A DNA stretch of 64,000 bases, taken from Desulfomonilia bacterium. GTDB taxonomy: Bacteria > Desulfobacterota > Desulfomonilia > UBA1062. Made by a program: the position numbers and the translations under genes. The notes under the pieces are model-generated. The model saw nothing but the letters and a program-made list of their open reading frames with translations. It had not been told where the DNA came from and ran no database searches. Shown in pieces: positions 27,199-57,298 of this stretch. Each line of letters begins with the position of its first letter. Position 1 is the stretch's first letter. The stretch spans positions 448,001 through 512,000 of the forward strand of contig CAXXDQ010000007.1 of assembly GCA_963664325.2 (NCBI GenBank), in the 5' to 3' direction.

Positions 27199-28728
27199 TT
27201 ATTTTTCTGTCTTTAACCTCAATGAACGTTCGAATCCGGGCAGCCGTGACTCATTGACAAAAAGTCTGTACGGCCTTCTGATCTTCCACCCCTTCATAAC
27301 AGGATCATACATGCCTATTTTTCTGCCAGAAAAAATAAGTTTCGGATATTTATTATTCTTCCGTTCAAATACTGCCAGTTCTATCCTTTTAACCTTTGGC
27401 AGCAGTTTTATGAAAATTCCTGAACGCGACAGGCCATGATAAACGCAGTGGAGCAGCCTTGATATAAAACGCATGACAGGCCTGCGCACCTTTACCAGAT
27501 GCATCTCCGCAACACCCAATAAACCTCCATAAATCCTGCGCATCCGGCCATCTCTATGTGATTCGCAAACCCGGCCGATAACATTAATCCTGTCAATTGT
27601 ATATGGGTCGGGATTGGCATTACTATCTCCCTTTGTCCGGATCTTGGAGTCTTTTACTTCAATAATTCTGTGGACTATCGTATCTTCCCTGGTTTCAGTC
27701 TTGTAGCATATTACATCGCCTTTTTTTATCCTTGAGCCGGCATCATAAGGAATAACAGTCATCATTTCAGGTTCGATAAATGTAGGATTCATGCTTACGC
27801 CGCGATAGACGAAATACAAACAGTTTCCATTTTTCCTTTTTTGAACATAATCATTTTCAGACAGCCTGACGTTCACTTCTTCAATCTCTCTCCTTTGAAG
27901 GATAACAGATTTAAGGGTCTTTTCCATCTCCTTCCAGAATTCACCGGTAAGGCTGATATGAAGCTGGAAGGCAGGGACAGATTGGGACAGTACATTCGCT
28001 CTTTTAATAAAGTTTTTAACAAGCCCTTGTTTTTCCCTAGCAGTAAACATATTCGAGCGTGTGACATGTTCGACAGTATCAATGATCATGGCCTTCGCAT
28101 GCGCCTTGTCAACCGGTATTGCAAAGTCATTAGGTGACTGCACCAGGAAAAATATCACATTAAGCTGAATTCCATCCTCAACTTTCCAGCTCCCGCCTGG
28201 CCCCTTCGTATAAAACCTGCTCCATGTAGGCCAGGGATGGGCTCTGAAGCCACCATTGCCATCAGGTATAATTATCGTCGCGTCGTCGCAGTAAGAAATC
28301 CAGGGTCCGGGCAGCCTCATGCTGGCTGTGGATTTGCCGATAGTCCCCGGACCGGCCATAATTGCGCCTGCTCCATCATGCGAACACAATGCACCGTGAA
28401 TGAGCATTCCGCCCTTATTCGTAGCATCGATAACAACAGCCTGGGCAATCCTTTCCACCTGGATATTGAACATCTCTCTGTTTTCGGCCGGATTGAGTAT
28501 GCAAAGGATCGGCTCTTCGTCGTTTTCAGGTATAACGAGCTTTTTTTCACCTCTTTCATGTTCCTTTACACAGACCAGAATTTTTCTGCCCTGTTCTTCT
28601 ACTTTCTCAAGCTGCATGATTTCCGCAAGCTTTTGAACAAACGTTTCCGCTTTTTTATCGGTTGGGATGATTGAATATCCAATTGATTCCGTCAGTTTCA
28701 TTACGGGATTCTTATTGATAGTATTCAT
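27199..28728 (-). CDS. scmC: SynChlorMet cassette ScmC-like protein (HPr-kinase-like P-loop) fused to an S26/S24 peptidase domain
   Basis: GGMLIHGAL...AGPGTIGKST...CDDA...RAHPWPTWS. C-terminal GVSMNPT...GDVICY...IVHRII...TKGDSN..PD (signal peptidase I, Ser-His type). Confidence 0.8.
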   Translation of the reverse strand: MNTINKNPVMKLTESIGYSIIPTDKKAETFVQKLAEIMQLEKVEEQGRKILVCVKEHERGEKKLVIPENDEEPILCILNPAENREMFNIQVERIAQAVVIDATNKGGMLIHGALCSHDGAGAIMAGPGTIGKSTASMRLPGPWISYCDDATIIIPDGNGGFRAHPWPTWSRFYTKGPGGSWKVEDGIQLNVIFFLVQSPNDFAIPVDKAHAKAMIIDTVEHVTRSNMFTAREKQGLVKNFIKRANVLSQSVPAFQLHISLTGEFWKEMEKTLKSVILQRREIEEVNVRLSENDYVQKRKNGNCLYFVYRGVSMNPTFIEPEMMTVIPYDAGSRIKKGDVICYKTETREDTIVHRIIEVKDSKIRTKGDSNANPDPYTIDRINVIGRVCESHRDGRMRRIYGGLLGVAEMHLVKVRRPVMRFISRLLHCVYHGLSRSGIFIKLLPKVKRIELAVFERKNNKYPKLIFSGRKIGMYDPVMKGWKIRRPYRLFVNESRLPGFERSLRLKTEK

Positions 28729-28742
28729 GGCGAAGTGATTTT

Positions 28743-29909
28743 CTAATTTAGCTGCTTCTTTTTTCTCGACGCAGCGAACCTTCCTGATTCATTCGCCTCA
28801 AGGCACATGGTATGCGGCCATAGGAGTCTGCCGAAGTTCGAGTAGTTCTGCACAACACAGCCTGTCCTGCATTTGCGCATGAATATGCAGTTGCGGCACA
28901 GTTCCGGATAATTCGCGAAATCCATTAGATCATTTCTGAGTCTCACGACCGCCGGATGGTTGAGCCATATGTTCCTGATCGAATCTTCTCCGAGCTTGCC
29001 GTAAACAAGTTCGGGCATGGTCCTGCCTATTCCGCACAGAGCAATAGCCCCTGAGCCAAGGATGCCGAGTATATGGTCAACCCCGCAATCGCCTGCATTG
29101 GTATTTGAAACAAGCTCTTTAATCGGTCTTAAAGAAAGCGGAATGTTAATTATAACAGGTATGCGGGAAATCTTTTTCAGAGAGCCCCTCACAAAATCAG
29201 ACAGCTCAATTATTTCCTTAAGTGCAAGTGTCTCGTTCCTCTCGTGCATGAGGATGCCTCGGCCGTTGTTTGTCACAGGATTCAACTTTACCGAACCCGC
29301 GCCCTTCGACGCCGCCATCTTGACGAGCTCTTCAACCTCGCCGACATTGCCCCTATGAGGGGACATGATTATCTGCACGTTCTTGTAGCCGGCATCGACA
29401 AGGCACCTTAGACCGTTCAGAGCCGTCTTGTAAGCGCCTTTGACGCCTCTGAACCTGTCATGGGATTCCTCATGTATGCTGTCCAGACTTATTGATATGA
29501 AGCTGATCTTCGTCTCTTCCCTTAGAAACCTCGCCTTTTCTTCATCGAGGAGCGTGCCATTGGTTTCCATATTCAGGCTCAATCCCTCTTCGGAGAGCAT
29601 TCTGGCTATTTCCCTGAACCTCGGATGTATCATCGGTTCGCCACCGGTAAGCTTGGCGTTGGTCAGACCGAGCGGCTTCGCCTCATTCACTGCCTGTCTT
29701 AAAAGCTCTATGTCAATGACCTCGCCGGGAGACGGCTTCCCGTTTACGAAAGAAGGCGTTATCCAGCAGTGCCTGCACTTCAGATTACAGCTGTCAGACA
29801 TGTAGAGGTAAAACGCTCTCAGAACCGGGACGCCTTCAGGCAGATCGGGATTTCTCTTATTGTCACTATCAACCATATCGCTGCTTAAGCAAAGATCGGT
29901 CATTCTCAA
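28743..29909 (-). CDS. scmF: Radical SAM/SPASM peptide maturase, ScmF-like
   Basis: YLYMSDSCNLKCRHCWITP; SPASM CGVDHILGILG...ALCGIG...CRNC...CRTGC. Start could be a slightly downstream ATG. Confidence 0.82.
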   Translation of the reverse strand: MRMTDLCLSSDMVDSDNKRNPDLPEGVPVLRAFYLYMSDSCNLKCRHCWITPSFVNGKPSPGEVIDIELLRQAVNEAKPLGLTNAKLTGGEPMIHPRFREIARMLSEEGLSLNMETNGTLLDEEKARFLREETKISFISISLDSIHEESHDRFRGVKGAYKTALNGLRCLVDAGYKNVQIIMSPHRGNVGEVEELVKMAASKGAGSVKLNPVTNNGRGILMHERNETLALKEIIELSDFVRGSLKKISRIPVIINIPLSLRPIKELVSNTNAGDCGVDHILGILGSGAIALCGIGRTMPELVYGKLGEDSIRNIWLNHPAVVRLRNDLMDFANYPELCRNCIFMRKCRTGCVVQNYSNFGRLLWPHTMCLEANESGRFAASRKKKQLN

Positions 29910-31012
29910 ACCTCTTGAAGATATTTTTTATAGCAGACAAGCGGATCAATGGAGTTCAACATACCGGTCTTTGACATGACTGTTCCGGGACATCCGCCGG
30001 TGCAGAATCCTGCATACAGACAGCCCCGGCATTCTTCGGCCTCGGTTATTGGAATTTTGCGTCGCTCCCTCACAATATTTATGTTCGGGTGAGCCTGCCA
30101 GACCTCTTTGAGCGAAACCTCTCCCATTTTTCCCATGACCAGGGTGGGCAGCATGTTGCACGGCACATATGTTCCGTCGTGCAGAACCGCCATCTTGTTG
30201 AACACTCCCCCACAGGAGCAGAATGTTCCTCTGCCTTTCATCGAGGTTTCACCTCTTTCAAGCCTCTCACTGATTTCCCTCATCATCCTGGCCCTTGTCA
30301 GCGGCCCGGCCTGTGCGCTTATACGACCGCCGTATCTTTCATCGATCGAGACAAGCGTAACCATTGCCTTCTTTCTTTCTTCTATACTCAGTATGATATC
30401 CTGGCCGTTGCAGCGGGCGCTTCCCATATAGTCGGCCTCGTTCGTGCTGAATCCGGACAGACCCACGTCATCTATGAGCAGCTCGGCAATGTTTTCAAGG
30501 TCATTTACATTATGGCGGTTTATGGTAACCCTCACGGTGACGGGAAAACCATGTTTTTTCAGTAGTCTGAGTGCGCCTATCGCCTTTTCGAAACTCCGGG
30601 GAGGCCTGCTCTTGTCATGGATGTCCGGTCTTGAACCGTCGACTGAAATCTGGATGGAATCGAGCCTCTGCCTGCGTTTTCCTTTAAAGAATTCGCTTAT
30701 GGTTTTCTCGTCAATGAGCGTGCCGTTGGAAAGTATTTTGTATCTCATCTTGTTGTCTATGACACTGTCGATGATTTCGAAAAGGTCTTTTCTTATGAAC
30801 ACTTCGCCCCCGCTCAGGCAGACCTTCTGAACCCCCAGACCACCCGCTTCACTGAAAAATGCAAGCCAGTCCCCGGTAGGAAGATCATCCGCCTTTTCCA
30901 TGCTCTCTGCATAAAAGCAGTAGCGGCATTTAAGGGTGCATTTTCCTGTAAGTCCTATGTCGAGTTCAAGTGGGGCGGATGATATTCCGGGATAACCTTC
31001 AGGAGATTTCAT
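29906..31012 (-). CDS. scmE: Radical SAM/SPASM peptide maturase, ScmE-like
   Basis: LDIGLTGKCTLKCRYC; SPASM CSCGG...VPCNML...CRGC..AGFCTGGCP...DPLVC. Overlaps both neighbours. Confidence 0.82.
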   Translation of the reverse strand: MKSPEGYPGISSAPLELDIGLTGKCTLKCRYCFYAESMEKADDLPTGDWLAFFSEAGGLGVQKVCLSGGEVFIRKDLFEIIDSVIDNKMRYKILSNGTLIDEKTISEFFKGKRRQRLDSIQISVDGSRPDIHDKSRPPRSFEKAIGALRLLKKHGFPVTVRVTINRHNVNDLENIAELLIDDVGLSGFSTNEADYMGSARCNGQDIILSIEERKKAMVTLVSIDERYGGRISAQAGPLTRARMMREISERLERGETSMKGRGTFCSCGGVFNKMAVLHDGTYVPCNMLPTLVMGKMGEVSLKEVWQAHPNINIVRERRKIPITEAEECRGCLYAGFCTGGCPGTVMSKTGMLNSIDPLVCYKKYLQEV

Positions 31013-31277
31013 TTATAAAATTTACTCCCAGCATTTTTATGAAGTTTTCCGCATCATTTTTTGCGCTTTCAAAGTCTATACCGCTGAAGCTCTCGACAAG
31101 GAAGGCGGCTATTTCATCCAGAGTCCTCGGCTTTTCTATGAAAACCCATATTAGCCCGCCCGTTACATTCATTATCGTGCTTAAATCCATGTCAGGGTTA
31201 TATAGAACCGCGCCTTCATGGTCTTCATCTCTGAACGAGACATCCGGGTTCGACTGATATCTTATTCCATTCGCCAT
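30999..31277 (-). CDS. scmD: PqqD/RRE peptide-recognition protein (type A, ScmD-like)
   Basis: 92 aa: NPDVSFRDE...GAVLYNPD...MNVTGGLIW...TLDEIA..L...F...AKNDAENFI. Confidence 0.85.
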   Translation of the reverse strand: MANGIRYQSNPDVSFRDEDHEGAVLYNPDMDLSTIMNVTGGLIWVFIEKPRTLDEIAAFLVESFSGIDFESAKNDAENFIKMLGVNFINEIS

Positions 31278-31368
31278 TTTTCACCTTGATTTATATAATT
31301 TTGCTCGATTGATGTTTTCTTTAAAACGTTTACCCGGTGCAATAAATTCAGTTTCAACATAAAACTAG

Positions 31369-31398
31369 AAGCCGGAGACATTCAAAAATCTCCGGCTT
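31369..31398 (-). terminator. Hairpin downstream of precursor gene 1 (terminator or mRNA-stabilising stem-loop)
   Basis: AAGCCGGAGA-N10-TCTCCGGCTT, perfect 10-bp stem 18 nt after the stop. Confidence 0.65.
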
Positions 31399-31416
31399 AT
31401 GGAATAAACTGGCTTA

Positions 31417-31677
31417 TTAAAAACCATTACCTTCAGAAACACAAGCAGTACTTGCTGAGTTTCCTGAAGAAAAACAGTCATGCATATCGGTTCCTGGTGA
31501 ATTGCCATCACCAGTACATGACAGGGTTGCAAAATTACCAGTCATGCAGGGGGAGTCTGCATTTGATCCCGGTGTAGTACAGTCTCCGATAGAATTCGAG
31601 GTTCCATCAAGCTTTATCGCTTTCGGCGCTTCGTATACGTGTTTAGAAACGGTACCGGATTTGTTTTCTTTAGCCAT
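31417..31677 (-). CDS. Cys-repeat RiPP precursor peptide 1 (86 aa)
   Basis: MAKENK...VYEAPKAIKLDGTSNSIG-DCTTPGSNADSPCMTGNFATLSCTGDGNSPGTDMHDCFSSGNSASTACVSEGNGF. AGGAG RBS; paralogous to 32095 and 32393. Confidence 0.85.
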   Translation of the reverse strand: MAKENKSGTVSKHVYEAPKAIKLDGTSNSIGDCTTPGSNADSPCMTGNFATLSCTGDGNSPGTDMHDCFSSGNSASTACVSEGNGF

Positions 31678-31775
31678 CACCATCTCCTAATATATTATCA
31701 TCCGTCATGAGCAAGATAATATTTAACACTTAATCTAAAGACGGGAAAAGTCAACCGTCATATGTTACATTGTCG

Positions 31776-32098
31776 TCAATATATTACCCTGCAGCCGGAG
31801 AAACCGTTCGAGTTGAGCCTGTCCGCAAGTTCAAAGACATCACAGCCGATGTCCCCGGGTACACCCGTAAAAGCCTCTTTTATAAGCTCTACTATCCGGC
31901 CAACGTCTTTAGCGCCGTCGCTGCATTCCTTCTTAACTTGCCCGTGGAGTTGACGGGCACAAAATTTCCGGTATCCATATTGACCCGCACGGCCCAGCCG
32001 TTTTCTTCATCCTGATAGATAACATCGGGGTTGTAGAGAATTGCACCATCTTCTCCCTCGTCCCGGAATGATATGTCAGGGGTCGCTTAATACTTCAA
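31776..32098 (-). pseudogene. Chimeric PqqD/RRE pseudogene (type A N-terminus fused to type B body)
   Basis: Hand translation: KY*ATPDISFRDEGEDGAILY-NPD-VIYQDEENGWAVRVNMDTGNFVPVNSTGK..[1-nt deletion ~31920]..DGAKDVGRIVELIKEAFTGVPGDIGCDVFELADRLNSNGFSGCRVIY*. Confidence 0.85.
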
Positions 32099-32346
32099 AA
32101 ACCACTCCCTACAGTAAGACAAGTCGTAGGGCTATTACCACTTGAATCACAATCGCCTATAGCGCCTATTCCATTGGCATAACAAGCTTGCATTGCTCCA
32201 TTACCATTCGTAATGCAATCTTGAACATCCCCTGAACCAGCCCCAACACAATCACCCATAGATTTACGGGTGCCATCCAGCCTCATTACCTTCGGCGCTT
32301 CGTAAACAGGCCTCACATCATTGACATTCTTTTTTTCTCTTGCCAT
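32095..32346 (-). CDS. Cys-repeat RiPP precursor peptide 2 (83 aa)
   Basis: MAREKK...VYEAPKVMRLDGTRKSMG-DCVGAGSGDVQDCITNGNGAMQACYANGIGAIGDCDSSGNSPTTCLTVGSGF. AGGAGAGG RBS. Confidence 0.87.
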   Translation of the reverse strand: MAREKKNVNDVRPVYEAPKVMRLDGTRKSMGDCVGAGSGDVQDCITNGNGAMQACYANGIGAIGDCDSSGNSPTTCLTVGSGF

Positions 32347-32392
32347 TATCCTCTCCTTGTTTTTAACCAATAAGCAGGGTTCGCTTTATACC

Positions 32393-32641
32393 TCAAAAAC
32401 CACTCCCATCAGTAAGATAATTTACAGGGCTATTACCACTTGCTTCACAATCTCCTATAGCGCCTGATCCAGAAGCATGACAAATATCTATTGCACCATT
32501 ACCATACGAAAGGCAATTTTGACCATCACCTTAACCCGCCGTACATTCCCCTAAAGATGTTCGGGTGCCGTCCAGTCTCATTACCTTTGGCGCTTCGTAA
32601 ACAGGCCTCGCATCATCGAGATGCCTTTTTTCTTTTGCCAT
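32393..32641 (-). pseudogene. Cys-repeat RiPP precursor 3 with an in-frame TAA
   Basis: MAKEKRHLDDARPVYEAPKVMRLDGTRTSLGECTAG*GDGQNCLSYGNGAIDICHASGSGAIGDCEASGNSPVNYLTDGSGF; TAA at 32531-32533. Confidence 0.87.
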
Positions 32642-32795
32642 TTTCCCCTCCCTTATCTTTATCCAATAAGAATGAGCAATATCTTATAATCTCAAAATTT
32701 AAAAGGATGGGAAGTCAACATTCGTAGTACAGCAAACCATTACAATTTTAAAGATCTTCCAATCCGGCAACCGGCGGGCAAATTTGTCATAAGCA

Positions 32796-33083
32796 TCAAT
32801 ACTCCACCTTATATCCGAAAAAACCGTTTGCCCTGAGGTTATCGATCAGTCCGGCAACATCATTATCAATATCATCAGGCACGCTTGAAAAGCTCTCTTT
32901 TATAAGACCGATTATCTTTCCCACGCTTTTCCTACCGTCAGCCGCCTTCCAGATTGATTTGCCCGTACTGTTAACGGCAATCGAATTGCCAGTGTCCATA
33001 TTGACCAGAACGGCCCAGCCATCATCCTCATCCTGATAAATCACGTCCGGGTTCGGATACGGTATATACTCGTAATTTGACAT
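32796..33083 (-). CDS. PqqD/RRE peptide-recognition protein (type B)
   Basis: NPDVIYQDEDDGWAVLVNMDTGNSIAVNSTGKSIW..ADG...IDNDVAGLIDNLRANGF. Confidence 0.85.
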   Translation of the reverse strand: MSNYEYIPYPNPDVIYQDEDDGWAVLVNMDTGNSIAVNSTGKSIWKAADGRKSVGKIIGLIKESFSSVPDDIDNDVAGLIDNLRANGFFGYKVEY

Positions 33084-33227: not shown

Positions 33228-34100
33228 TCATCTGGATTTTGAAAAGTCTCCGCGCAGATACGGGACAAGCGAACTTATGACAAACCAGGCAAAGGCCGCA
33301 AGGATTACTGTGGCGCCTGTAGCGGTATAGGCCCATTCCTGAGCGGAAATTATCAGGCCGGCTGCGGCCGACGTTATGCTTATCAGAACCGCCCACCAGA
33401 ACATGGCGCCGGCCGTGCGGGACAGATTCCTTGCCGCAGCAGCAGGTACAATGAGAAGGGCCGTTACAAGCAGAACCCCCACTGCCCTTACCGAAAAGAT
33501 CACCACGACTGAAAGCAGCGCGGCATACATGTACTGATAAAAAGCGACCTTTATCCGGTGCGCCCTGGCAAGTGCATGGTTGAGTCCGATATAAAACAGA
33601 CGGTTGTAGCTGAAACCCATAAAAACAATGATGATAAGGGCAAGGGCTGCAAGCCTTAATATATCGCCGGTGCTTATGGACAATATGTCGCCATACAAAA
33701 AGATCTGCATATCGCGGGCTACGCTGCGGTCGCGGCTGACTATCGCAATTCCGAATGCTACGACGGCGGAAAAGAAAACACCTACAACAGTATCCATGGA
33801 AAGCTTGCTTTTCCGCTGCATCACCGTAATGGAAAGTCCGACAATCAGGGCGAATACGACCATAGTAACTGAAGGGTTCATTGATGCCATCAATCCTATG
33901 GCGACTCCTGTAAAGGCCGAATGGCTTATTGCATCAGAGAAAAACGCCATCCTGAAATTTACGACCTGTATGCCCATGACAGCGGCCATCGGCGCCAGAA
34001 GCAAGAGCCCGACAAGCGCCTGCTGCATGAACCTTGCTTCCATACATTCGAAAGGAAGCGCCAGAGGTATGATACCGTAAACAGCTGACAGGTCAGGCAT
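33228..34100 (-). CDS. znuB: Zn/Mn ABC transporter permease
   Basis: MAFFSDAISHSAFTG, FLYGDIL, VGVLLVTALLIVPAAAA. Confidence 0.9.
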   Translation of the reverse strand: MPDLSAVYGIIPLALPFECMEARFMQQALVGLLLLAPMAAVMGIQVVNFRMAFFSDAISHSAFTGVAIGLMASMNPSVTMVVFALIVGLSITVMQRKSKLSMDTVVGVFFSAVVAFGIAIVSRDRSVARDMQIFLYGDILSISTGDILRLAALALIIIVFMGFSYNRLFYIGLNHALARAHRIKVAFYQYMYAALLSVVVIFSVRAVGVLLVTALLIVPAAAARNLSRTAGAMFWWAVLISITSAAAGLIISAQEWAYTATGATVILAAFAWFVISSLVPYLRGDFSKSR

Positions 34101-34899
34101 TCGCAACACCCCCGCCATTTTCCTCATCACATTCTGTACAACCGTCCTTTATCGGCCTGAAGCTGAGCTCTCCGATATGAGGACCGAACATGTCAAGCAG
34201 TATGCCCTTGTTGAAAATGTCTTTCGGCGCACCTTCCGCAATCAATTTCCTATTGAGGCAAATCACATGGCTAGCATGGTAGGCCACCATTCCCAGATCA
34301 TGGCTGACCATAAGCTGGGTAAAGCCTTTTTCAATTCTGAGGTGCTCAAGGAGATGGCAGAAAACCTGGCCTCCTTTCATATCAACACCGGCGTCAGGTT
34401 CATCAAGAACAAGGATTTCCGGATCCCTCTGAATGGCAAGAGCCAGCAGAACCCTCTGCATCTCTCCGCCTGAAAGAGCACCGAGTCTTCTTCTCAAAAG
34501 GTGCTCGGCCTTTACCGAATAAAGCAGTTGAGAGGCAGTCTCCTGCATGCTTCTGTCTATTCCGAGCCAGAACGGTTTTTTCTGAACACCCATGGACAGG
34601 AATTCGATTACGGTTAAAGGAATACCCCTGTCAAAGGCGAACCGCTGCGGGACATAACCTATTCTGACTCCGCTCTTTGAATCATGTGAATAAATTCTAA
34701 TATCGCCTCTGTATTTTATCTCGCCGAGCAGAGCAAGCAGCAGCGTTGTTTTCCCGGCGCCGTTCGGGCCTATGATTGCCGTGCACTCTCCCTCAGGGAC
34801 ATCCGCATTTATATTCTCAAGGATCGACACCCCTCCCATTTCCACGCCTAAATTTTTAAATTGAATGGCTGACTTAACGGACAGATGTTCTTTTTCCAT
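34093..34899 (-). CDS. znuC: Zn/Mn ABC transporter ATPase
   Basis: GPNGAGKTT, IGYVPQ, LSGGEMQR, LDEP, SHD. Confidence 0.92.
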   Translation of the reverse strand: MEKEHLSVKSAIQFKNLGVEMGGVSILENINADVPEGECTAIIGPNGAGKTTLLLALLGEIKYRGDIRIYSHDSKSGVRIGYVPQRFAFDRGIPLTVIEFLSMGVQKKPFWLGIDRSMQETASQLLYSVKAEHLLRRRLGALSGGEMQRVLLALAIQRDPEILVLDEPDAGVDMKGGQVFCHLLEHLRIEKGFTQLMVSHDLGMVAYHASHVICLNRKLIAEGAPKDIFNKGILLDMFGPHIGELSFRPIKDGCTECDEENGGGVANA

Positions 34900-34900
34900 T

Positions 34901-35854
34901 CTATTTCTTCCCCAGTGTCACTTTTAATGTCTCTATGTTTTTCATCATAACCATTTCATAATAGTTGAGGCCTGCATTTTCAGGGCCCGTGGCAACAGGG
35001 TCGAGTATTGCTGACGGTATGCCGGCCTCTTTTGCTATAACCTGCGGCACCTTTGATGAATACTGGGGTTCATAAAAAACGGCGCCCGCCTTATATCTCT
35101 TGACTTCCCTTATTATTGAAAGCATCTCCGATGCCGACGGTTCCTGGCCGGGATGCGACTCTATAACGGCAACTATATCAAGACCTGCATCGCGCGCCAG
35201 ATAATCGAACACCCCGTGCTGGGTAACGATATTCCTGTTTTTAAGCATCTTAACCGATGAAACGAAATTATCCGACAGGCGGTTCATTTTTGAAGCATAG
35301 GCCTTTGCATTCCTGTTGTAGGTTTCAGCCCCGCCGGGGTCGGCTTTTGAAAGAGCCGAGGCTATGTTCATGGCAAGCTGACCACACATACGGGGGCTTG
35401 CAAAAAGGTGCGGGTTTACACCTTCATGATGATGGTCCTTGACCTTGTCATGGCCCGTCAGAATCTGACCGCCATCCGCGTTTCCGAGAAGGTTTTTTAT
35501 GCCCGCCGAACTGTCAACAACCCTCAACCGGCTGTTCGCCTTCCCGAGAATCGTGTCCATGAACTCCTCCATCCCCAGACCGTTTATTATAAGGATATCC
35601 GCCCTGGAAATCTTTTGCATGTCCTTCGGCGTCAAGGAATAATCATGCGGGCACCCGGATGCCGGAGGCAGCATCAATTCGACTTTGACCGCAGCATTTC
35701 CCTGAACGACATTCCTGGTTATCTGATAAACGGGAAAAGTGCTGCAGAGGACTTCCATCTTTTTCCCTGACGAATAAACCTCGCCGGTCATCAGAAATGA
35801 CAATAGGAAAATACAGCTCATAATGATGGCCTTCATTTCACACTTTCCAATCAT
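34901..35854 (-). CDS. znuA: Zn/Mn ABC substrate-binding protein
   Basis: CPHDY, His-rich loop HDKVKDHHHE, NPHLF, EP motif. Start may be ATG 35836. Confidence 0.9.
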   Translation of the reverse strand: MIGKCEMKAIIMSCIFLLSFLMTGEVYSSGKKMEVLCSTFPVYQITRNVVQGNAAVKVELMLPPASGCPHDYSLTPKDMQKISRADILIINGLGMEEFMDTILGKANSRLRVVDSSAGIKNLLGNADGGQILTGHDKVKDHHHEGVNPHLFASPRMCGQLAMNIASALSKADPGGAETYNRNAKAYASKMNRLSDNFVSSVKMLKNRNIVTQHGVFDYLARDAGLDIVAVIESHPGQEPSASEMLSIIREVKRYKAGAVFYEPQYSSKVPQVIAKEAGIPSAILDPVATGPENAGLNYYEMVMMKNIETLKVTLGKK

Positions 35855-35880
35855 TTACCGGCCCCTTTAAAATAGCTTAT

Positions 35881-35924
35881 TGCAAACTCATTTGCATTAT
35901 GATTATTAACAATAAACATGTCAA
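35881..35924 (-). promoter_or_regulatory. znuA promoter and probable Zur operator
   Basis: Minus strand TTGACA-N17-CATAAT (35924-35896). Palindrome TGCAAA-CTCA-TTTGCA (35881-35896) abuts the -10/+1. Confidence 0.7.
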
Positions 35925-35973
35925 TCGTTATTGGGATTTAGCTCATAACAATAAATTTCAAGAAGGTTTAGGA

Positions 35974-36351
35974 ATGTACAAGCGAAACACATCTCGAAGA
36001 AAACTGCTTGAGGAGATCATGTCATCAAGCGCAACCCCTTTAAGTGTTCAGGATATCTTATCCAAAGGAAGGGCGCGGATCAAGTCGCTAAACCAGGCCA
36101 CCGTTTACAGAAACCTGAAGATTCTCGTAGAAAACGAACGGCTGAAGGTCATCTCCCACCCGGCGCTGGGCCATCTCTATGAAATGAAGGAAAAGGACCA
36201 TCACCACCACTTTTATTGTCAGAAATGCGATAAGGTCTACCAGCTTGACGGCTGCCCGCTGAAGAAAACAGGTATTTCACCACCAGGATTTGTGCTTGAG
36301 GACCATGAAGTGTACCTCTCGGGCATCTGTGCAGACTGCAACAGAAGCTGA
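35974..36351 (+). CDS. zur: Fur-family regulator, probably Zur
   Basis: ATVYRNL, HHHHFYCQKC, GICADC; divergent from znuACB. Confidence 0.85.
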   Translation: MYKRNTSRRKLLEEIMSSSATPLSVQDILSKGRARIKSLNQATVYRNLKILVENERLKVISHPALGHLYEMKEKDHHHHFYCQKCDKVYQLDGCPLKKTGISPPGFVLEDHEVYLSGICADCNRS

Positions 36352-54996: not shown

Positions 54997-55106
54997 CAAA
55001 GACTCTCTTCAATGAAACTCTATTTGACATTTCTGCTTGTTGCCTTGTAGAGCAGATGAATATTTTTCAGCTTCATAATATATTCGACCGACGAAGAGGA
55101 GACGAT

Positions 55107-56039
55107 ATGACTGCAAGAACCGGAGCGTCGCATATTTCAGACTGGATTTCTGCAATGAGAATACCTTTTGCCACGGTTGCAATAGTACCTTTCGGTGTCG
55201 GTGTTTTCCTGGCTTTTGTTAACGGCGCCCAGGTTTCATGGCCTGCTTCAATTTCCGGTATCGTAGCAGTAATGCTGATATGCACGGGCTGCCACCTTAT
55301 CGGTGAAGTCTCCGATCAGGCGGAAGACAGGAAAACCCTTGATATCGGAAGGACAAAGTTTTCGGGCGGCACCCTTTCCGTCGTGGAAGGCAGGCTCAAT
55401 GAAAAATCCGTAATGAAAGGCGCGATAGCCTGTTTTGCAGTTTCGGCTCTTCTTGGCGGCTATATCTTTTATATCCAAAGGTCATTCTGGCTTATAGGAC
55501 TCGGGATTTTCGGCGCCACGGTTGCAATACTCTATTCCCTGCCTCCTGTCAGGCTGGCGAAACAGGGAGTGGGAGAGCTGTTTATCGGCATATGCTACGG
55601 ATGGCTGACAATCGTTACAGGCTATGCTACCGCATCAGGCATGATGCCGCCCGATTCATACATCTGGTGCTGGCCGGTGGCCCTTACGGTATTCAACATC
55701 ATACTGATAAATGAATTTCCGGATTTCATCCCGGATTCTTCGACAGGCAAAAAAACCCTTGTAGTCAGGATAGGAATGGAGAAAAGCCAGTGGATATATG
55801 CAAGTGCATCGATGCTTACCGGAATCTCAATACTGGGCCTCTGGTTCAGATACAGACCGTTTGAGATGCTCTTCCTGGCCGCGGTTCTGCCGGGAATTTT
55901 ACTCTCCTTTGTGCTGGCATACCTCGTTGCTGTTAAAAAAGTCTGGAAATCCAACAGCACGATCGAGCCCGTATGCGCATTTACGATAATATTAAACCAC
56001 ATTTCATCCCTAACGGTCGCCCTGCTGGTAAGATGGTAA
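55107..56039 (+). CDS. MenA-like prenyltransferase (UbiA superfamily)
   Basis: MRIPF, GEVSDQAED, FSGG, YSLPPVRL, GVGE, INEFPDFIPD...GKKTLVVR. Confidence 0.82.
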   Translation: MTARTGASHISDWISAMRIPFATVAIVPFGVGVFLAFVNGAQVSWPASISGIVAVMLICTGCHLIGEVSDQAEDRKTLDIGRTKFSGGTLSVVEGRLNEKSVMKGAIACFAVSALLGGYIFYIQRSFWLIGLGIFGATVAILYSLPPVRLAKQGVGELFIGICYGWLTIVTGYATASGMMPPDSYIWCWPVALTVFNIILINEFPDFIPDSSTGKKTLVVRIGMEKSQWIYASASMLTGISILGLWFRYRPFEMLFLAAVLPGILLSFVLAYLVAVKKVWKSNSTIEPVCAFTIILNHISSLTVALLVRW

Positions 56040-57298
56040 TAGCCCCTTATCTATCCGTCCATAACCTCATAAGGCAGTTTGCTTCATCGCTTCTGCTCAT
56101 GAAGACCGCCAGGTGGAAACACTTCCCCCTGTGGCTGAGCAGAAACGCCTGGAAGTCCATACCGGTTGCAGGCGGCGCCGTCGGCATGGGCTGTATCGGG
56201 TTCGGATATCATGCAGTCTGGGAAGTCACAGAAGCCTGCAACCTCAGATGTCTGCACTGCCACGCCACAAGCAGTGTGGCATCATCCGATGAACTCGATA
56301 CCAAGGAGGGTTTCAGACTGCTAGAACAGATACACAGACTGAAGGGATTCCAGATGCTCGCATACTCGGGCGGTGAACCTCTTGTGAGGAAAGACATCGA
56401 CGATCTGCTTGCATACGGGAAAAAGCTGGGTCTGGTTAATGTAATCGCAACAAACGGCACGCTTATAGATTATCCACGGGCCCGGGAACTGAAAAAACTC
56501 GGCGTTAAAGGCGTCGCCGTAAGTTTCGATTCCACGGACCCTGATATACACAACAGCATCAGGCAGAGCCCGACCGCCTTCGATCGCGCGATACGCGGGA
56601 TAGAGGCCTGCAAAAAGGCGGGCATTATAGTTCAGCTGAACTATACGGCAATGAAGGAAAATATCGGGACCCTGGCTGAAGTGGTGAAGTTCGCCCATGA
56701 TATCAATGCAGCCATCATGCTCTGCTATCAGCTAGTACCCATGGGCAGGGGCGGCGCAATTGCATGTTCTGCCCTCTCCCCTGAAGACAACAGGCTTCTG
56801 ATGAACAGTGCAAGGAAACTCCAGGCTGATGCGGTAACCATTGTCGAGCCTGTTGCAGGACCCCAATACTGGGCGCATCTTCTACGAAGGGACAACAGGA
56901 ATCCGAAGCGCCTTATAAGGCACAGCCCATTCCATGGCTGTGCAGCAGGATGGGGACTTGTTTACATAAAGCCCAACGGCGAAGTATGGCCCTGCCCTTT
57001 TGTCCCTGTAAGCGGTGGAAATGTCCGCTCAAGCAGTCTTTCCGACATTCATAAGAAAAGCGACATATTCAGAAAACTCTCGGACAGGAATAACCTTAAG
57101 GGAAAATGCGGCGAGTGTGAGAACAGGCATGTCTGCGGAGGCTGCCGTGGAAAGGCCTATGCCGCCTGCGGTGATGCCCTCGAAACCGATCCCACCTGTT
57201 ATATACACTTTACTGAAATGCCGGAATATCTGAAATGGGCTTCAAATACAGCTGTCGCCGGTGATGCGCCGGGAGGAGGCACGGGAAGCTGCGGTTGA
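56033..57298 (+). CDS. Radical SAM/SPASM protein (Ahb/NirJ-like)
   Basis: WEVTEACNLRCLHCHA, SGGEPL; SPASM GCAAG...PCPF...GKCGECE...CGGCR...DPTC. Confidence 0.85.
   Translation: MVIAPYLSVHNLIRQFASSLLLMKTARWKHFPLWLSRNAWKSIPVAGGAVGMGCIGFGYHAVWEVTEACNLRCLHCHATSSVASSDELDTKEGFRLLEQIHRLKGFQMLAYSGGEPLVRKDIDDLLAYGKKLGLVNVIATNGTLIDYPRARELKKLGVKGVAVSFDSTDPDIHNSIRQSPTAFDRAIRGIEACKKAGIIVQLNYTAMKENIGTLAEVVKFAHDINAAIMLCYQLVPMGRGGAIACSALSPEDNRLLMNSARKLQADAVTIVEPVAGPQYWAHLLRRDNRNPKRLIRHSPFHGCAAGWGLVYIKPNGEVWPCPFVPVSGGNVRSSSLSDIHKKSDIFRKLSDRNNLKGKCGECENRHVCGGCRGKAYAACGDALETDPTCYIHFTEMPEYLKWASNTAVAGDAPGGGTGSCG

Follow-up and report, generated by a model that had tools for sequence, protein, structure and literature searches.

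A divergent SynChlorMet-type cassette with Cys-repeat peptides as probable distant ScmA-family precursors in a Desulfomonilia bacterium

Background

Which peptides do the enzymes of a SynChlorMet (SCM)-type gene cassette act upon, and how close to that type is a cassette whose parts are duplicated, fused and relocated? The question is raised by 64,000 nucleotides of DNA from a Desulfomonilia bacterium (assembly GCA_963664325.2, contig CAXXDQ010000007.1, positions 448,001 to 512,000 of the forward strand), a stretch that we call the window and whose own numbering is used below. Its minus strand carries, at 27199-33083, a gene set of the kind associated with peptides that are ribosomally synthesised and then modified post-translationally (RiPPs): short Cys-repeat peptides, PqqD-family peptide chaperones as presumed RiPP recognition elements (RREs), two radical S-adenosylmethionine (SAM) enzymes with SPASM motifs, and a ScmC domain fused to a signal peptidase. 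A PqqD chaperone, two SPASM radical SAM enzymes, the ScmC P-loop protein and a Cys-rich precursor with a Y-E-x-P leader likewise make up the SCM cassette (ScmA, TIGR04252; ScmC, TIGR04249; ScmD, TIGR04248; ScmE, TIGR04250; ScmF, TIGR04251). Literature searches on SynChlorMet, its five TIGR accessions, ScmE, ScmF and ScmA RiPPs, and HPr kinase together with radical SAM returned nothing on SCM, which is, as far as these searches show, a bioinformatic family without a published product.

An original prediction had proposed that the paralogous Cys-repeat peptides are the precursors of this cassette. We suggest, with a probability of about three in four, that the locus is a divergent SCM-type RiPP cassette and that these peptides are distant ScmA-family precursors. 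The evidence includes the recurrence of the peptide family beside scmC in many other genomes, and a profile-profile comparison with peptides that the curated ScmA model recognises.

Cys-repeat peptides and their linkage to scmC

Two intact peptides are encoded in the cassette, precursor 1 of 86 aa (31417..31677) and precursor 2 of 83 aa (32095..32346), the latter with a Y-E-A-P leader motif and a core of 5 Cys at a spacing of 10-11 residues. Five further intact paralogues are found on other contigs of the genome (C3:991408-991623, C5:185893-186123, C5:186307-186537, C7:899789-900007 and C4:230177-230413), none of them adjoining a radical SAM gene. Y, E, P and L of the leader are identical in all seven peptides, as are several G and C of the core. 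The leader is about 30 residues long with the motif (K/R)-Y-E-x-P-x-hydrophobic-hydrophobic-x-L, and it is followed by repeats of the form C-x2-3-G-(N/S)-x-A with a period in this genome of 10-11 residues and Gly at +4. Among the genome's 51,881 stop-to-stop frames with a length of 40 aa or more, both the own-genome and the iterated peptide profiles match, at E ≤ 1, only the seven intact copies and both pseudogene halves. Since the own-genome profile matches nothing else at this threshold, the peptides are not chance open reading frames (ORFs). The two paralogues on contig C5 form a tandem pair directly downstream of a gene for a GT1 glycosyltransferase, which has 26% identity (E = 8e-17) to a GT1 that in other genomes stands downstream of SCM cassettes.

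A scan of the ScmC alignment against 185,579 species genomes recovered 60 ScmC loci, more than 400 nt of upstream sequence being available in 54 of them. They span Syntrophales and related lineages, WOR-3, KSB1, Omnitrophota, Aerophobetes, Chlorobium, Saganbacteria and Synergistia, and include the archaea Methanothrix, Methanospirillum and Methanogenium. Built only from the seven peptides of this genome, the peptide profile finds the family in 29 of these 60 loci (E ≤ 1e-3). After two more iterations 48 loci are matched, a count that is not an independent test because the iterated profile, like the alignment A4 used below, was built from scmC-adjacent peptides. In 40 of these 48 loci the peptide has the same orientation as scmC, and its end lies within 1.5 kb upstream of that gene. 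Because the same peptide family adjoins scmC across phyla, the assignment of the 83-86 aa Cys-repeat peptides as precursors of the cassette is strongly supported by these homology searches. The proposal of the original prediction is borne out in this respect, and the search that it suggested in other Scm cassettes, for ORFs with a YxxP leader and Cys repeats, recovered such peptides mostly just upstream of scmC.

The association is also seen among closer relatives. Three other species of the genus retain an intact cassette in synteny, with a single peptide between the two PqqD genes. Canonical cassettes in another family of the same class have, in the interval from scmF to scmC, a gene for a Cys-rich peptide of 75-79 aa whose leader is related, and their peptidase is a gene of its own after scmC. 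Among 41 relatives, six genomes are peptide-positive, all with ScmC above its cut-off, while none of the 30 ScmC-negative genomes is peptide-positive. Of 401 sampled genomes of the phylum (ScmC at E ≤ 1e-20; peptide by the A4 profile at E ≤ 1e-4), 18 are ScmC-positive, 38 are peptide-positive and 16 are both, the lists having been compared by hand and related genomes not being independent. One of the two ScmC-positive, peptide-negative genomes has scmC at the very start of a contig.

Across the family, an aromatic-x-x-P motif is followed by the first Cys 9-31 residues on (median 19) in 84 of 85 peptides. The leader consensus reads (K/R)-Y-E-(K/P/A)-P-x-(L/V/A)-(V/I)-(D/R)-(L/M), with the Y present in 76 and the P in all 82 aligned contexts. 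A short class (55-110 aa, median 5 Cys) has a modal Cys spacing of 10 with Gly at +3 and Ala at +6, and a long class exceeds 110 aa with a median of 14 Cys (loci L091, L094, L096, L101, L103, L106, L107, L113, L119, L121-L125, L131, L133 and L136). Precursors of the long class often stand in tandem arrays that alternate with extra scmC copies, frequently followed by an ABC (ATP-binding cassette) exporter and a GT2 glycosyltransferase.

Relationship to ScmA

The original prediction had started from the premise that no precursor of SCM had been identified. That premise is outdated, as NCBIfam release 20 includes TIGR04252, 'SCM_precur_ScmA' (49 positions, cut-off 35 bits), the profile of which begins at a Y-E-P-P motif and spans the first three Cys. 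It is the sole NCBIfam family matching the wider peptide family, with hits at E ≤ 0.01 to 8 of 91 collected peptides and to 40 of 137 short top matches (best 4e-10); four positive peptides that were inspected individually score 17-29 bits, under the cut-off. In the 401 phylum genomes the model gives two sub-cut-off matches, which lead to ScmA-like peptides, and in the 41 relatives it gives matches at noise level only, none above the cut-off. Aligned by hhalign, the peptides of the window genome and four ScmA-positive peptides are related with 97.8% probability (E = 7.9e-13, 65 columns), with compositional bias as a caveat. Judged by these profiles, the window peptides are divergent ScmA relatives overlooked by the curated model and not a new precursor class.

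Pfam and NCBIfam hold no family that matches the window peptides even at E ≤ 10, and in the ESM Atlas the peptide falls only in unnamed clusters. Precursor 1 by itself retrieved no homologue in a word-index search; this reflects a limit of the tool, since later profile searches succeeded. The peptide profile searched against 1.84 billion proteins matches 2,097 cluster representatives (50% identity) at E ≤ 0.001, mostly of 70-150 aa and matched from the leader onward, and a word search with A4 retrieved 13 proteins, all unnamed or 'hypothetical' and without a Pfam family. In proteins of 770-1501 aa (P0001-P0004 and P0098), the profile aligns through its Cys-repeat core alone, at 4-7 stretches; the Cys-repeat therefore also occurs in large proteins.

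Peptide chaperones and radical SAM enzymes

RRE-B (32796..33083) and a second PqqD paralogue, RRE-A (30999..31277), both pass the Pfam PqqD model (PF05402; 50.2 and 34.9 bits, respectively) and score 54.4 and 21.7 bits against the ScmD model TIGR04248. Canonical ScmD proteins from the 60 loci favour RRE-B over RRE-A in BLAST (52-84 versus 30-38 bits), and RRE-B is by homology the orthologue of canonical ScmD. An A-type/B-type PqqD pair is also present in a WOR-3 locus (L085). The predicted complex of RRE-B with the leader scores 0.49 against 0.00 for the best control, with contact agreement between runs of at least 93% and a partner pLDDT (predicted local distance difference test) of at least 54, but the score is a weak indication; PqqD-leader complexes have been solved, and the pass may merely echo those structures. 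Of 80 solved complexes 58 reach the mark set for such scores, as do 2 of 110 mismatched pairs (rough counts, own alignments having been used), and the passes at 0.60 or less comprise only 7 of the 80 solved complexes, yet both mismatched pairs that pass.

The ScmE-like enzyme (368 aa; 29906..31012) scores 391.7 bits against TIGR04250, its best family by more than 260 bits (next 124.7), and the ScmF-like enzyme (388 aa; 28743..29909) scores 313.6 bits against TIGR04251, again its best family (next 108.9). Pfam finds Radical_SAM in both and SPASM in the ScmE-like one. Each carries CxxxCxxC, CX(9-15)GX4C and CX2CX5CX3C, the CxxxCxxC motif lying at residue 25 of the ScmE-like and 41 of the ScmF-like protein and the SPASM motifs at residues 265 and 328, and 275 and 338, respectively. 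Another radical SAM/SPASM gene (441 aa, 55973-57298), on the plus strand, overlaps the end of a UbiA-like prenyltransferase gene, the two together spanning 55056-57298; it seems unrelated to the SCM cassette.

The combination of an RRE with a SPASM radical SAM enzyme acting on a core with regularly spaced Cys is likewise found in the maturation of sactipeptides and ranthipeptides, of which AlbA/subtilosin, CteB/SCIFF and PapB/freyrasin are characterised examples. The StsB, PapB and AlbA models appear as secondary matches (103, 70 and 64 bits). The window cassette departs from those systems by its two radical SAM enzymes, its stand-alone PqqD proteins and the presence of both an HprK-like protein and an S26 peptidase. 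The closest experimental analogue that we found is CrpA/CrpC of Methanococcus voltae, in which, as reported, a SPASM radical SAM enzyme installs ranthionine cross-links on a Cys-repeat substrate with a leader-like N-terminus (PMC13692751). Both systems thus share a leader-like N-terminus followed by many Cys repeats, and a SPASM radical SAM enzyme. The Crp system, as reported, differs in its radical SAM enzyme, which belongs to TIGR04463 and has the RRE fused to it, in its far larger substrate, in a 17-residue repeat with a C-x-x-Q/D motif, and in the absence of ScmC and of an S26 peptidase.

A different chemistry could nevertheless be carried out by the same cassette on the same precursors. 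The Cys would then not be thioether donors; the enzymes would instead form C-C or ether cross-links, epimerise residues or make Cys-derived heterocycles, while the thiols would serve as metal ligands in a metal-binding product tied to the neighbouring zinc/manganese uptake genes. The families next in rank for the ScmE-like enzyme are chemically mixed (WgkB 124.7, PqqE 118, StsB 103, AhbD 98.7 and PapB 70 bits), and homology therefore does not fix the chemistry. Moreover, the genes of a ZnuA/ABC-3 permease/ATPase importer and a divergently transcribed Fur-family regulator (33228-36351) abut the RRE-B end of the cassette, an arrangement kept in the three other species of the genus. However, locus maps and neighbour clusters do not show it beside SCM cassettes elsewhere, where the frequent extra neighbours are an ABC exporter (21 of the 60 loci) and glycosyltransferases; because this neighbourhood is limited to the genus, we keep a Znu/Fur membership as a minor alternative only. 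Those regular Cys repeats beside SPASM enzymes that have been tested gave thioethers, for instance the ranthionines reported for CrpA/CrpC (PMC13692751). A product made without thioethers is hence considered unlikely.

The ScmC-peptidase fusion

Besides the radical SAM enzymes, the cassette encodes a 509-aa fusion protein (28728..27199, minus strand). Its ScmC domain (aa 1-285; 27874..28728) is followed, at 27199..27873, by a linker, a SEC11/SipW-like signal-peptidase domain of the S26B type (aa ~301-400) and a helical/beta tail at the C-terminus. The ScmC domain passes the TIGR04249 model (153.7 bits, E = 6.7e-45; cut-off 125). Conserved motifs comprise an upstream His, a GK(S/T) P-loop (Walker A at residue 126 of the fusion) and a downstream Asp-Asp; in 59 ScmC sequences H111, G131, K132 and T134 are invariant and D148 is present in at least 90%. 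These motifs and a P-loop fold are common to ScmC and HPr kinase/phosphorylase (HprK/P), with an identity in fold matches of only 9-14%, while ScmC has a different N-terminal domain and is here fused to a peptidase. The ScmC profile matches HprK/P structures around the P-loop, first 1knx (E = 0.0022) and then 1ko7, 1jb1 and 2qmh. An AlphaFold2 model of the fusion, made from a 59-row alignment (mean pLDDT 86.3, predicted template modelling (TM) score 0.66), retrieves in a Foldseek search of the PDB first chains of phosphoenolpyruvate carboxykinase and HprK/P (E = 3e-5 to 1e-3, target-normalised TM score up to 0.58), and after these the signal peptidases SpsB, SEC11A (7p2p, 0.51) and SipA. According to this model, the ScmC domain has an HPr-kinase fold.

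HprK-like kinases of lasso peptide clusters phosphorylate the precursor. The presence of HPr kinase in lasso clusters of anaerobes is noted in one report (PMC4289311). Because the ScmC domain is HPr-kinase-like, phosphorylation by it is a reasonable guess by analogy.

The peptidase domain passes TIGR02228, the archaeal-type signal peptidase I (60.6 bits; cut-off 51.85), and can be aligned to SEC11C and SEC11A along the motifs S-M-x-P, H-R and G-D-x-N, whose Ser, His and Asp are presumably catalytic. The motifs and fold are shared with S26B signal peptidases (SEC11A/C, SipW and the archaeal type). Unlike these, the domain is anchor-less and fused to a cytoplasmic P-loop protein; no membrane anchor was detected in the fusion, with a maximal hydropathy over 19 residues of 1.02. 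Its substrate would be a RiPP leader and not a secretion signal, and the soluble S26B domain is presumed to be the leader peptidase. In SCM loci a signal-peptidase gene mostly follows scmC, while the two are fused in the window. Among the 60 loci, 6 have such a fusion (7 ORFs; L083, L084, L085 with two, L087, L089 and L135), and the fused proteins are the closest relatives of the ScmC of the window.

Organisation and decay of the array

All nine elements listed by the original prediction, from RRE-B to the ScmC-peptidase fusion, were recovered on the minus strand from the ORF listing and a three-frame translation, at the coordinates it had given. Their order is D-(pseudo-precursor)-precursor-(pseudo-D)-precursor-D'-E-F-C::S26, and the modal order in the 60 ScmC loci is D-E-F-peptide-C-S26; thus the precursor of the canonical SCM cassette lies between scmF and scmC, whereas those of the window, at 83-86 aa, lie between the two PqqD genes. 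The ScmE-like gene overlaps both RRE-A and the ScmF-like gene, and a ribosome-binding site is directly readable ahead of precursor 2. The cassette is the single SCM-type copy in the genome. Between precursor 1 and RRE-A there is a terminator-like hairpin (31369..31398; 11-bp stem followed by a T-run), which might act as an attenuator, a possibility that we offer as a lead only; terminator-like sites in the region number 6 against 5.7 expected by chance, and hence show no excess.

Two elements of the array are pseudogenes. Precursor 3 (32393..32641) has an in-frame TAA at 32533..32531 and a last Cys codon changed to Tyr, and is 63% identical to precursor 2. The PqqD/RRE pseudogene (about 31776..32086) lacks a start, and its frame shifts midway; by three-frame translation its first codons are RRE-A-like and its body RRE-B-like. 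Precursor 3 and precursor 2 are covered by direct repeats with 80-84% nucleotide identity (D1 and D2), and the RRE pseudogene and RRE-B by another with 74% identity over 113 nt (D3). These repeats confirm duplications within the array. The chimeric junction looks like the scar expected from an unequal crossover between paralogous PqqD genes, by which the unit of RRE-B and precursor would have been duplicated.

One might therefore regard the cassette of this genome as a decaying remnant without a product, given the nonsense-coded precursor 3, the frameshifted chimeric RRE and a cluster that has no exporter. Yet the five enzyme and chaperone genes and two precursors are intact with canonical Fe-S and catalytic motifs, five more intact paralogues persist in the genome, and the cassette is intact in the synteny of the three congeneric species; the pseudogenes themselves look like by-products of tandem duplication. 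Loss of function is for these reasons improbable, more so than a chemistry without thioethers.

Genomic surroundings

Downstream of the cassette lie genes for DUF134 and a NifX-like protein; together with the importer genes on the other side, these surroundings are syntenic only within the genus. The statement in the original prediction that the cluster contains no transporter is correct, the flanking ABC system being the ZnuA/ABC-3 importer. Among the 60 ScmC loci the common neighbours are the ABC exporter of about 616 aa (downstream, 21 loci), GT2 (10 loci) and an unannotated protein of about 569 aa (13 loci), mostly upstream of scmC.

A second radical SAM RiPP-like cluster of this genome lies outside the window, on contig C3 at about 857.4-866.5 kb (locus L140, 5372-14509). 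Its genes code for a 673-aa protein that joins a radical SAM enzyme to an HprK-like domain, a further two radical SAM enzymes, a PqqD protein, a fusion of S24 peptidase and GNAT, a protein of the NTP_transf_5 family and an ABC exporter with 45% identity to the SCM-associated one. Four or five small ORFs in the same cluster combine 4-5 Cys with a leader of the form W-x-K-P-E-L-x-x-L, similar to the Y-E-K-P-x-L of SCM.

Discussion

The assignment of the window cassette to SCM has to be weighed against a number of observations. Neither RRE reaches the ScmD cut-off of 100 bits, and the ScmE-like and ScmF-like enzymes fall below theirs, which are 400 bits for both families; the TIGR04249 match of the ScmC domain covers only profile positions 99-292, the first 98 being unmatched. 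TIGR04252 does not match either window peptide even at E ≤ 10. No peptide is matched after iteration in 12 of the 60 ScmC loci, six of which have 400 nt or less of upstream sequence, and 22 of the 38 peptide-positive phylum genomes have no ScmC match at E ≤ 1e-20. Ten of these 22 are every sampled member of one family, and in G222, the one of the 22 that was inspected, a divergent ScmC-like P-loop protein adjoins the peptide. The cores are of low complexity (G/S/N/T/A/C) and may inflate profile scores, in addition to the dependence of the iterated and A4 counts mentioned above. Finally, the two pseudogenes indicate some decay, and no exporter lies within the cluster. All of these points count against the assignment.

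The resemblance to SCM that the original prediction had noted, and its suggested check with the hidden Markov models for ScmC to ScmF, are accordingly upheld in part: each enzyme has its best match in an SCM family, but only ScmC scores above its cut-off. Because ScmD, ScmE and ScmF lie below their cut-offs and ScmC alone above, the cassette is best described, in terms of these models, as a divergent sister form of SCM. Divergent traits are the ScmC::S26 fusion, the second PqqD paralogue, the relocated and duplicated precursors and the five orphan precursors. That the small Cys-rich ORFs are not substrates at all, the true one being encoded elsewhere, could be argued from the missing TIGR04252 score and Pfam family, but is highly improbable in view of the position, strand linkage and leader motif conserved across phyla, the specificity of the profile within the genome and the profile-profile tie to ScmA-positive peptides.

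For the divergent SCM-type cassette with distant ScmA-family precursors, a pathway can be proposed. The substrates would be the two intact peptides of 86 and 83 aa and probably also the five orphan paralogues. RRE-B, possibly together with RRE-A, would bind the leader and hand the peptide to the two SPASM radical SAM enzymes, by which Cys could be cross-linked as thioethers to nearby backbone or side-chain carbons, in analogy to the sactipeptide and ranthipeptide maturases. The ScmC domain may phosphorylate the peptide or engage it in an ATP-dependent manner, and the soluble S26B domain would cut off the leader, probably at a site that follows small residues immediately ahead of the first Cys. 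The cluster does not encode export. Both the thioether and the phosphate chemistry of the product are thus inferred from the analogous systems.

A more far-reaching account, which we put forward tentatively and hold to be doubtful as a whole, is that SCM constitutes an uncharacterised RiPP class in which 10-11-residue C-x-x-G-x-x-A repeats are stapled rung by rung by two SPASM enzymes, phosphorylated by an HPr-kinase fold and freed by an anchor-less cytoplasmic leader peptidase, with one enzyme set serving seven precursors (two in cis and five in trans). If this is true, the single enzyme set and the seven dispersed precursors would give rise to a small combinatorial family of products.

Conclusions

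The window offers a compact test case, with two intact precursors, two chaperones, two radical SAM enzymes and one fused kinase-fold/peptidase protein. It could serve to find out which chemistry the class carries out, what an HPr-kinase fold does in the maturation of peptides and whether a soluble S26 peptidase is used to remove the leader. The curated ScmA model leaves most of a large precursor family unannotated, and a broader profile would name thousands of small ORFs now called 'hypothetical', in a family that spans anaerobic bacteria and methanogenic archaea.

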